Shown here: one piece after another, positions 22,273-24,692 of the stretch
Layout: every line of letters begins with the position of its first letter
Position numbering within the stretch: position 1 is the first letter of the stretch
Assembly (NCBI GenBank): GCA_048882505.1
Contig: JBHLRO010000004.1
Location: forward strand, 80,193 to 112,192
Length of the DNA stretch: 32,000 bases
Direction: 5' to 3'
Origin: Candidatus Thorarchaeota archaeon
Lineage (GTDB): Archaea; Asgardarchaeota; Heimdallarchaeia; Hodarchaeales; Hodarchaeaceae
The notes under the pieces: model-generated
Told to the model about the DNA's origin: nothing
The model's database searches: none
Seen by the model: only the letters and a program-made list of their open reading frames with translations
Program-made: the position numbers and the translations under genes

Positions 22273-23028
22273 TTAAACAGGTGTGGCATTGATTTGTCGT
22301 ACCATTAGTGGCAAAAAAACGCCAGATTTGGCTTCAATACGAATGTCTGCCATGTGATCTAGTTCTGTTACCCCCTCATTAATAATGATAACCTGACTTC
22401 CCGATTGCTTCGCCAGAATGGGGAAATTGGCCGCAGGGAAGACACTTAAAGACGATCCGATGACAAGCATGACATCACATTGTCGTGAGTGATGTTCAGA
22501 TTGTCGCATCTCTCGTTCGGGCATCGGGTCATTGAAGTTCACCACAGAAGAGATTAAGCGGCCATTGCAAGCGGGACATCGGGGTTGACCATTAATCGGT
22601 TTCTCCGTGCGAAATCCAGTGCCATGTATCTTGTTGTCCCATTTCACCCTATTTTTGGCATAACGCTCGTCACAATCCAAGCATTTTAACAAACCGTAAT
22701 TACCGTGCAATTCTGCTAGCATTGAACTCGGAACTCCTGATTTAAGATGGAGATTGTCTACATTTTGGGAGATTACAAATTTTAGAATTCCTAGTTTGCA
22801 TAATTCAAAAAGAGCAAAATGCCCAGGATTAGGTTTCGTTACCTCAATGGGTTGTGCAGACTGGGGTGGTGGGAGACCTCGGTCCCGTCGTGTCCACACT
22901 CCTTCAGGACCACGGTAATCAGGGAGCCCTGATTCTGTGGAAATCCCCGCTCCAGTAAAAGCCACTAAGTATTTGGATTTCCTAACAATATCGGCTACTC
23001 GTTCTACATCATCAGAAGTAAATGCCAT
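22273..23028 (-). CDS. Sir2-family NAD-dependent deacylase with class IV (SIRT6-like) short helical region
   Basis: GAGISTESGLPDYRG, SQNVDNLH, ELHGN, CxxC...CxxC zinc site, GSSLSVFPA. Confidence 0.93.
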   Translation of the reverse strand: MAFTSDDVERVADIVRKSKYLVAFTGAGISTESGLPDYRGPEGVWTRRDRGLPPPQSAQPIEVTKPNPGHFALFELCKLGILKFVISQNVDNLHLKSGVPSSMLAELHGNYGLLKCLDCDERYAKNRVKWDNKIHGTGFRTEKPINGQPRCPACNGRLISSVVNFNDPMPEREMRQSEHHSRQCDVMLVIGSSLSVFPAANFPILAKQSGSQVIIINEGVTELDHMADIRIEAKSGVFLPLMVRQINATPV

Positions 23029-23048: not shown

Positions 23049-24692
23049 CTAAACCGCCTCTGAAATCTTTATATCAAAGAGTCTCCGTAAATAATGGATT
23101 GGTAGACCTCCATTACGGATAATAGTATTATGAAAGAATTTATCCGTATATGCGTCTCCCATTTTTGCCTTGATTTCGTCACGTAGCTCCAAAATCATGA
23201 ATTTACCCAAAAGATAAGAAAATTGATATCCGGGTGTAGCAGTGTATCGTTTCAATTCCGCCACCACGGCGGGTTCAGCCATCCCGATTTCTTTCATCAT
23301 CATCATTTTGGCCTCCTCAAAAGTCATTTGCCCCGTAGACAATTTGATATCGACAATGATTCTAATAGCTCGCCACAACTGGTCTATCAGTTGAATAAAG
23401 ACTCCTTTTTTATCAAGGAACCCCTTTTCTGCCATCAACTGCTCACAATAATGCGCCCAGCCTTCAATAGTTTCGGTTCCAGACACTATGCTCCGTATCA
23501 GACTCGGTTGAAGATTTCCCGAGGCAAGTTGAAGATGATGTCCAGGATACCCTTCGTGGACAGCGGTGTTTTTGCAAGATGCGTAGCTGTGTTCTTTTAA
23601 CATCTCTTCGTTTCCTTCTGTTGGTGTCACGACATATTGGCCAACCTGAACCTTTGCAAACTTTTCTGGGGTAAAATAGGCTGCAAATGGAATAATCGGG
23701 ATTAGAAACGTAGGTGTAGGAATCACTTGGAGTTGTTCATTATCGGGTACATCCATAAGTTCGTGATCAATCACAAATGCCCTGGCTTCTTTCGTCAACT
23801 CCACCACATGTTCTAGAACCATTTCAAAGGATGGAGGATGATCCTCCTTAATAACCTCTCTTACCTCGTCCAGAGTCTTTCCGGGATAAAGTTCGTTCGC
23901 TAGTTCCTTTAGTTGGGTTTTAGTGTCGATTAAAGCCTGCTCTCCGATCTTTAGGATTTCAGCCGGAGTTTTGCCAATTTTCCTCAATGCAACCAATCTT
24001 GCGAATTTCTGAGGGCCAATTACCCAATCGTGAGTTGCCTTGGGTAAAATTTCATTTTTAATCCAGTAAGCATAGGTTTGGATCGCCTCAGTTGCTCCAG
24101 AAATTACTTCAACCAGTTCTCTGTGTAATTCAGGTTTTATTTGTGGCTTTAATGTTTGTTGAATAATTTGGAAGAAGCCTATCGTTGTTTCCCCCTCCTC
24201 GATTGCAATTCCCGTCCATAATTTCACTGGATATAGCCAGAGTGATTTTGTTTCTTCCAGATAGCGCGGGACAGCTTTTAGTCTGGAAATCATTGCTCTT
24301 ACTCTTGTTTCGACTGGAGCGAAATCTCGAACATATAGCGGGTATAAGGCATTCCCTATTTCGCCAATGGGTCCCTGCGCTGTCGCTCCCGCAGCCCACG
24401 AAGCTAATTCGGTCATCTCGAAAAACTGGAGATTTAGAAAATATTCAACTAAATCGTAATCAAGTTTGCCGTGATCAGATAACGAATCATAATCCAAACT
24501 CTCCAATTTTTGCCTAGATTCAAGGAATACTGAAATATCAGCAAGCATTGCCCCTAATGTTCCATCGGGCAACAAATGATCAAATTTTTCATGCTTGTAG
24601 CCCAGGTAGGTGGCAAATGTGGGGAATCTCTCCATAAATATTTCGAAGAATTCCTGAAATAACGCCTCCAGCCTCTTGTCTTCGTCACTCAT
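23049..24692 (-). CDS. DUF885-family metallopeptidase-like protein
   Basis: HEGYPGHHLQ, EGWAHYCE, LWRAIRIIVD, RYTATPGYQFSY. Confidence 0.9.
   Translation of the reverse strand: MSDEDKRLEALFQEFFEIFMERFPTFATYLGYKHEKFDHLLPDGTLGAMLADISVFLESRQKLESLDYDSLSDHGKLDYDLVEYFLNLQFFEMTELASWAAGATAQGPIGEIGNALYPLYVRDFAPVETRVRAMISRLKAVPRYLEETKSLWLYPVKLWTGIAIEEGETTIGFFQIIQQTLKPQIKPELHRELVEVISGATEAIQTYAYWIKNEILPKATHDWVIGPQKFARLVALRKIGKTPAEILKIGEQALIDTKTQLKELANELYPGKTLDEVREVIKEDHPPSFEMVLEHVVELTKEARAFVIDHELMDVPDNEQLQVIPTPTFLIPIIPFAAYFTPEKFAKVQVGQYVVTPTEGNEEMLKEHSYASCKNTAVHEGYPGHHLQLASGNLQPSLIRSIVSGTETIEGWAHYCEQLMAEKGFLDKKGVFIQLIDQLWRAIRIIVDIKLSTGQMTFEEAKMMMMKEIGMAEPAVVAELKRYTATPGYQFSYLLGKFMILELRDEIKAKMGDAYTDKFFHNTIIRNGGLPIHYLRRLFDIKISEAV

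Follow-up and report, generated by a model that had tools for sequence, protein, structure and literature searches.

We report a complete, core-only sirtuin of the SIRT6 type from an Asgard archaeon of the Heimdall/Hod type, encoded within a 32,000-nucleotide window, by which we mean the whole stretch of DNA that was analysed. The best explanation for this protein, to which we assign a probability of about 0.85, is that it acts as an NAD+-dependent protein lysine deacylase, likely on chromatin substrates, and belongs to a prokaryotic class-IV-like clade. Judged from the homologues sampled here, that clade is common but patchy in Asgard archaea, is found also in Desulfobacterota, Planctomycetota and Myxococcota, and has eukaryotic members of the SIRT6/SIRT7 type only. 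SIRT6 and SIRT7 have roles in chromatin and ageing, and the class IV to which they belong is still presented in reviews as eukaryotic. The protein is a further member of an Asgard class-IV-like sirtuin family that has already been reported, the Asgard link having been published in 2022, and a search of a literature library found no publication treating sirtuins, Asgard archaea and class IV together.

The gene and its predicted fold

The open reading frame starts with ATG, encodes 251 amino acids without internal stops (ORF list and translation; Table 1), and the placement of its start codon is backed by the conserved N-terminus of the Asgard orthologues. A single Pfam domain, PF02146 (SIR2), places the product in the sirtuin (SIR2) superfamily; the match is split in two and skips profile positions of about 26 to 58, which correspond to the helical module. 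All seven NCBIfam matches fell under their own cut-offs, and the best named ones, to CobB models, reached 206 bits in two stretches against a cut-off of 320 for the equivalog NF040867, so that the protein does not qualify as a CobB equivalog.

Table 1. Positions of the sirtuin gene, its motifs and the neighbouring genes, numbered from the first letter of the window
Feature	Position	Strand	Basis
Protein of 997 aa	16134-19127	+	
M14 zinc carboxypeptidase, 575 aa	20468-22195	+	
Complete sirtuin gene, P0001 (stop codon included)	22273..23028	-	ORF list, translation, Pfam SIR2 3e-30
NAD-binding motif GAGISTESGLPDYRG, residues 26-40	22909..22953	-	Invariant G26, A27, G28, S30, D37, R39, G40
Short connector GVWT...RGLPPP...PNPGH, residues 43-70, replacing the helical module	22819..22902	-	Alignment, AlphaFold2 model
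QNVDNLH motif, residues 88-94	22747..22767	-	N89 and D91 invariant
ELHGN, residues 106-110, with predicted catalytic base His108	22699..22713	-	E106, H108, N110 invariant
Zinc module C116-x2-C119 ... C151-x2-C154	22567..22683	-	C116, C151, C154 invariant, C119 nearly so
DUF885 protein, 547 aa, upstream same-strand neighbour	23049..24692	-	Pfam DUF885 1.6e-86

Residue conservation was scored over 60 class-IV-like sequences, and the NAD, catalytic and zinc residues (G26-A27-G28-x-S30, D37, R39, G40, N89, D91, H108 and the four cysteines) were invariant or nearly so among these homologues. They make up the GAGxS, QN(x)D and xHG motifs and the Cys4 zinc module by which the sirtuin superfamily is recognized. 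By analogy with established sirtuin structures, N89 and D91 would contact the NAD ribose and nicotinamide. The ELHGN motif pairs in the alignment with AELHGN of SIRT6, which includes H133. Between the two cysteine pairs lies a 31-residue insert (W-D...G-x-G-[FY]-R-T...Q-P-x-C), which in the alignment is common to both Asgard subclades described below, to Archangium and to a small group of sequences (L022, L077 and P0430), and is missing from the 235-aa forms of Desulfobacterota.

The linker between the GVWT and PNPGH motifs (W45 to P66) measures 20 residues in the alignment. That of SIRT6 has 19, and that of the Af2-like sequence P0152 has 35, which makes the present linker 15 residues shorter than the Af2-like type. 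An earlier note, made from the sequence alone and quoting residues 43-98 of the protein, had claimed a short spacing as in SIRT6 by comparison with a string of the human enzyme; the spacing holds, and the string agrees letter for letter with the SIRT6 chain in the phmmer alignment. Among solved structures, human SIRT6 was also the best relative by phmmer (2e-49), aligned in a single stretch over residues 10-234, with Sir2Af2 a close second (1e-47) and SIRT7 weaker (7e-28). By this measure of sequence, the resemblance to SIRT6 is far beyond chance.

A structural hallmark of SIRT6 is that its Rossmann fold and zinc module are joined without a helical module. An AlphaFold2 model built from a 60-sequence alignment (pLDDT 96.3, pTM 0.92) showed no bundle of helices in the stretch from residue 50 to residue 67. 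When the model was searched with Foldseek, the top 28 matches were all SIRT6, with TM-scores of 0.81-0.87 by query and rmsd mostly of 2.5-3.8 Å (up to 5.4 Å), while Sir2Af2 and Sir2Tm gave TM-scores of 0.67-0.74. VIA-align superposed the model on SIRT6 with Z 30.6 and an rmsd of 1.9 Å over 237 residues, and on Sir2Af2 with Z 27-29 and an rmsd of 4.2-4.8 Å over 215-227 residues; the gap in Z is small, and the difference in this predicted model rests on rmsd and coverage. Linker length, model and superposition thus all agree with the hallmark, and neither the helical module nor the clustering with Af2/Tm-type enzymes that would mark class U was seen. The class IV (SIRT6-type) architecture proposed in the earlier note, without the helical bundle of CobB/Sir2Af-type enzymes, is in this way backed by motifs, by linker and skipped Pfam positions, and by the predicted fold.

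Class IV sirtuins carry N- and/or C-terminal extensions that serve chromatin or nucleolar targeting. The present protein has none, its 251 residues being the core, which aligns to about residues 22-295 of SIRT6 and to nothing further. Its catalytic core is 34-36% identical to that of human SIRT6 (class IVa; PDB 3K35, 3PKI, 3ZG6), with which it has in common the short linker in place of the helical module as well as the NAD, His and Zn motifs. It differs from SIRT6 in lacking the N-terminal (about 25 aa) and C-terminal (about 80 aa) extensions, in the insert between the cysteine pairs, and in the second cysteine pair, which is a plain C-x2-C here and has extra residues in SIRT6 according to the phmmer alignment. 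The class U enzyme Sir2Af2 (Archaeoglobus fulgidus; PDB 1MA3) resembles the protein in being archaeal, core-only and about 250 aa long, but it has the helical module, its linker running to about 35 residues, and its relatives are placed outside the clade of class-IV-like sequences.

Distribution and genome context

The closest homologues were 55-74% identical, about 250 aa long, and came from metagenome-assembled genomes (MAGs) named as Heimdall-, Hod-, Loki/Prometh-, Thor-, Odin-, Freya-, Jord-, Hermod- and Borrarchaea. The nearest relative was in a Heimdallarchaeota MAG (L013, 71% identity), with which the local gene order is also shared. By our own count of rows, about 109 of the 301 sampled genomes of the phylum had a match of at least 245 bits. 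The class-IV-like gene is near-universal in some families (61 of 68 genomes in family f14, at the looser threshold of 1e-40) and patchy in others, the genus of the source genome included. Several f14 genomes carry a tandem pair of class-IV-like sirtuin genes (G287:C323:18496-20057, G281:C29:28135-29697, G215:C9:775486-777111 and G248:C190:72320-73942), and in the G215 pair the second copy has in-frame stops.

The source genome, assembled to 4.3 Mb in 83 contigs and 94.6% complete, contains two sirtuins: the one described here and, on contig 21, a paralogue of class III type. Three were present in complete Heimdall and Hod genomes (class III, U-like and class-IV-like) and two on a Loki chromosome. 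Two to three paralogues per checked genome agree with the three paralogous clades of Asgard SIR2 described in a 2026 preprint, 'Emergence of histone-based chromatin complexity in Asgard archaea' (bioRxiv 10.64898/2026.07.02.735847), whose authors did not infer ancestry, citing a 'complex evolutionary history'. A 2021 review stated that archaeal sirtuins are all of class III or U (PMC8556138), a statement which the class-IV-like Asgard family, as recognized by its sequences, contradicts.

A scan of prokaryotes, with one genome per species and the Branchiostoma SIRT6 core as confirming sequence, showed that the family is not confined to archaea. Among the best 80 loci, Asgard archaea were mixed with 'Deltaproteobacteria', namely Desulfobacteraceae, Desulfobacterales, Desulfatiglandales, Syntrophaceae, Syntrophorhabdaceae and other Thermodesulfobacteriota. 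Identity to Branchiostoma SIRT6 was 39-42% for the bacterial and 34-41% for the Asgard forms. A further family (P0127) is named from Planctomycetota (Pirellulales, Sedimentisphaerales), and a short-form sirtuin is also present in Archangium (Myxococcota). The R-D-x-G-L-P-P motif and the short linker are common to the Asgard, Desulfobacterota, Planctomycetota and Myxococcota forms. The bacterial short forms are 41-49% identical to the present protein and fall in the same clade (100/99), but they have bacterial hosts, and the Planctomycetota have a different insert between the cysteine pairs where the Desulfobacterota have none. The caveat of the earlier note that similar short forms may exist in bacteria was therefore well placed, and by its sequences the class-IV-like family is not Asgard-specific.

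The sequences L022 (2977-3741) and L077, on MAG contigs labelled Desulfobacterales/Thermodesulfobacteriota, together with P0430, are sirtuins of 254-269 aa with the Asgard-type insert. Their placement shifts with taxon sampling, either as sister of the Loki subclade or as sister of the eukaryotes (100/100), which could be due to transfer, mis-binning or long-branch attraction. The 110-kb contig of P0430 had metabolic genes only and is not diagnostic of taxonomy. Prokaryote-type class-IV-like sirtuin domains also occur behind N-terminal extensions in P0124 (408 aa), P0136 (537 aa) and P0142 (481 aa), and no Pfam domain was found in these extensions of 160-290 residues. Many SIRT7-like proteins of protists (P0306, P0194, P0314, P0321 and others) join a sirtuin core to a zf-UBP (PF02148) or CAP C-terminal (PF08603) domain, the latter pairing recalling the animal 'SIR8' of PMC9486876.

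In the window, the gene for a DUF885 protein containing the motif HEGYPGHH (H-E-G-Y-P-G-H-H) ends 20 nt before the sirtuin start, and the two genes are possibly co-transcribed. The adjacency was kept in L013 and L015 only, and DUF885 was accordingly rejected as a conserved operon partner, being limited to the two nearest relatives of the 80 loci checked. No functional clue was found in the gene neighbourhood across these loci. Convergent to the sirtuin gene lies that of an M14 zinc carboxypeptidase with a signal-like segment at its N-terminus and, at its C-terminus, a hydrophobic stretch followed by K-K-L-K-K-K, probably a surface-anchored peptidase. Further away, a protein with N6-adenine methylase domains of the Eco57I/MmeI type and a TaqI-like C-terminal specificity domain (997 aa; Table 1) looks like a restriction-modification enzyme of type IIG/IIL.

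Phylogenetic placement

Two trees, v3 and v4, were inferred with IQ-TREE under LG+C20+F+G4 PMSF, with ultrafast bootstrap and SH-aLRT. Tree v3 had 111 rows and a class III root (E. coli CobB with Asgard and bacterial paralogues); v4, with 102 rows, took in additional bacterial sequences and was rooted on class U. In both, the present protein and eukaryotic SIRT6/SIRT7 were united in one class-IV-like clade (100/99) to the exclusion of Af2-like class U and of class III, the reference sequences for other classes being prokaryotic ones of class III and class U. The stem of this clade measured 0.42 in both trees. In v3 it comprised 88 rows and was nested within a grade made up of class U sequences of the Af2 type, among which P0152 was confirmed as Af2-like by 244 bits to 1MA3. 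The grouping with class U or III that would have spoken against the earlier note was hence not seen, and on these alignments membership in the wider class-IV-like clade appears solid.

All eukaryotic sequences were monophyletic in both trees (100/100), with the present protein outside this eukaryotic crown of class IV. The eukaryotic clade included named animal SIRT6 and SIRT7, plant, amoebozoan, chytrid and heterolobosean sequences, the Amoeba sequence being SIRT7-like. The arrangement around it varied. In v3, the Asgard sequences grouped together (95/88) and split into two subclades, with the present protein in that of Heimdall, Hod, Jord, Freya, Borr and Odin, while the eukaryotes joined P0127, of Planctomycetota type, and P0129 (97/84) and then the Desulfobacterota forms (97/25). 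Tree v4 kept the 100/99 clade and the monophyly of eukaryotes and rearranged the backbone: the eukaryotes joined L022, L077 and P0430 (100/100), then the Loki/Thor/Hermod subclade (88/85), then Archangium-type bacteria, and then the subclade of the present protein. The stems of the eukaryotes (0.70-0.74) and of L022/L077 (0.47-0.60) are long, and with a eukaryotic stem of that length long-branch effects are likely.

These results may be compared with the published record. Grau-Bove et al. (2022; bioRxiv 10.1101/2021.11.30.470311) found SIRT7 to be the well-supported sister of a clade of Asgard (Heimdall and Loki) sirtuins, with SIRT6 nested among eukaryotes. The affinity itself is borne out by the present trees, which differ in that animal SIRT7 lies inside monophyletic eukaryotes. 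That clade and the paralogues of the 2026 preprint resemble the present protein in their Heimdall/Hod and Loki sources and in the affinity to class IV that has been claimed for them. In the preprint, Loki SIR2 paralogues deacetylated peptides of Loki histone tails in an NAD-dependent manner, and the cores of Loki and Hod SIR2 rescued silencing in yeast without Sir2 (bioRxiv 10.64898/2026.07.02.735847). LoSIR2a has N106 and H123 at a spacing of 17 residues, as against 19 in the present protein, and by this spacing LoSIR2a is probably not the class-IV-like paralogue.

Putative activity and origin

The conserved residues suggest how the enzyme may work. The Rossmann domain and the zinc module would be joined by the short linker, where other sirtuins have the helical module, and acyl-lysine and NAD+ would be held in the cleft between them. 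With His108 as the presumed general base, nicotinamide would be released and O-acyl-ADP-ribose formed. The likely candidate substrates are lysines of chromatin proteins that bear acetyl or other acyl groups, metabolic enzymes being another possibility. The source genome had nine histone-fold matches. Among its histones, one of 76 aa (L109; G000:C2:335566-335742) has a short Lys/Arg-rich N-terminal tail, M-S-K-R-T-K-A-R-R-K, and another (L106; G000:C32:6946-7356) is a doublet with two histone folds in a single frame. Each is a candidate substrate for the sirtuin.

Two other readings of the protein itself have to be weighed against a SIRT6-type deacylase. It could be an ordinary deacetylase of class U (Sir2Af2/CobB-type) that lost the helical module independently, its likeness to SIRT6 being convergent; Sir2Af2 nearly equals SIRT6 by phmmer and by VIA Z (29.0 against 30.6), CobB models are the best named NCBIfam matches, and with a class III root the whole class-IV-like clade is nested in the class U grade. 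However, the CobB matches are far under their cut-off, the rmsd to Af2 exceeds 4 Å, the clade shared with SIRT6/7 excludes all Af2-like sequences in both trees, and the linker shares with the eukaryotic enzymes the motifs GVWT and [DE][KR]G[LE]xP, beyond length alone. A class U identity is thus disfavoured, and we regard it as very improbable. Less far-fetched, though still improbable, is that mono-ADP-ribosylation of proteins or long-chain deacylation, both reported for SIRT6, is its main activity in place of deacetylation. The predicted SIRT6-type fold would be in keeping with such activities, and many prokaryotic members bear the JGI label 'mono-ADP-ribosyltransferase sirtuin 6', a name that stems from annotation transfer alone. 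The N-terminal segment of SIRT6 helps to form its long-acyl pocket, and this segment is missing here. In our reading of the phmmer alignment, the positions of F82, F86 and W188, which we take to be pocket residues of SIRT6, are S/A, I and F in the present protein, which argues likewise against this reading. The class IV sirtuins tested in a 2023 survey showed no significant peptide deacylase activity (JBC; PMC10652111), so that weak activity or ADP-ribosyltransferase activity of the present protein is possible; the Asgard SIR2 paralogues assayed so far, which may be of other types than the one described here, are deacetylases.

For the SIRT6-type deacylase, the question of how eukaryotes came by their class IV enzymes admits more than one answer. 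The earlier note had suggested an Asgard ancestor of SIRT6/7, and part of this suggestion stands: the protein shares a clade with SIRT6/7, and the family occurs in nearly all named Asgard lineages. Vertical descent of SIRT6/7 from the Asgard family, with the bacterial copies as secondary transfers out of Asgard archaea, also draws on the adjacency of the Loki/Thor/Hermod subclade to the eukaryotes with the L022/L077/P0430 group in v4, on the sister relation to SIRT7 of Grau-Bove et al. (2022), and on AU tests in which eukaryotes and Asgard archaea as one clade were not rejected in v3 (p-AU 0.335) or in v4 (p-AU 0.154). Against it, this constraint costs 10.7 and 18.8 lnL units, respectively, the Asgard clade of v3 has a sister in which the eukaryotes are grouped with sequences of Planctomycetota and Desulfobacterota type, animal SIRT7 is nested within the eukaryotes and not beside Asgard archaea, the subclade of the present protein is in neither tree the immediate sister of eukaryotes, bacterial homologues are equally SIRT6-like, and the gene is found in about one third of the sampled Asgard genomes. 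We hold such descent to be possible and rather doubtful. The same guarded judgement applies to a closest link between eukaryotic class IV and the bacterial short forms, with the Asgard family as a parallel branch or as the outcome of transfer to or from bacteria sharing the same sediments. Class IV has already been listed in bacteria, mainly Streptomyces (PMC8603916), Desulfobacterota forms match or exceed Asgard forms in identity to Branchiostoma SIRT6, each tree places sequences assigned to bacteria beside the eukaryotes, and eukaryotes with all bacterial forms, Asgard archaea outside, gave p-AU 0.39 in v4 at a cost of only 7.0 lnL units. Yet the bacterial sister differs from one tree to the other, a sign of unstable signal, long-branch attraction is plausible given the stems, and L022 and L077 come from MAGs with contigs that are bacterial by label, the context of P0430 being undiagnostic. 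The possibility raised in the earlier note that the nearest relatives of SIRT6/7 are bacterial is thereby neither confirmed nor rejected, the AU tests on these alignments not separating Asgard archaea from bacteria, while the accompanying idea that the gene itself is a recent transfer is unlikely in view of its breadth over Asgard lineages and of a local GC of 0.43 within the range of the window (0.37-0.43).

The evolutionary message is weaker than the earlier note had hoped, since the Asgard link is published, close bacterial homologues exist, and a single-gene signal cannot settle the donor to eukaryotes. We tentatively consider that class IV may not have arisen in eukaryotes but be their branch of an older clade, one common to Asgard archaea and to sediment Desulfobacterota, Planctomycetota and Myxococcota. 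The immediate donor would then be some lineage of bacteria or an Asgard subclade distinct from that of the present protein. If true, SIRT6/7 would represent an inter-domain transfer around eukaryogenesis and not simple vertical inheritance from Asgard archaea. For the family as a whole, the present protein is a clean archaeal case of the SIRT6 architecture and a good small model for the class IV core without its eukaryotic extensions.
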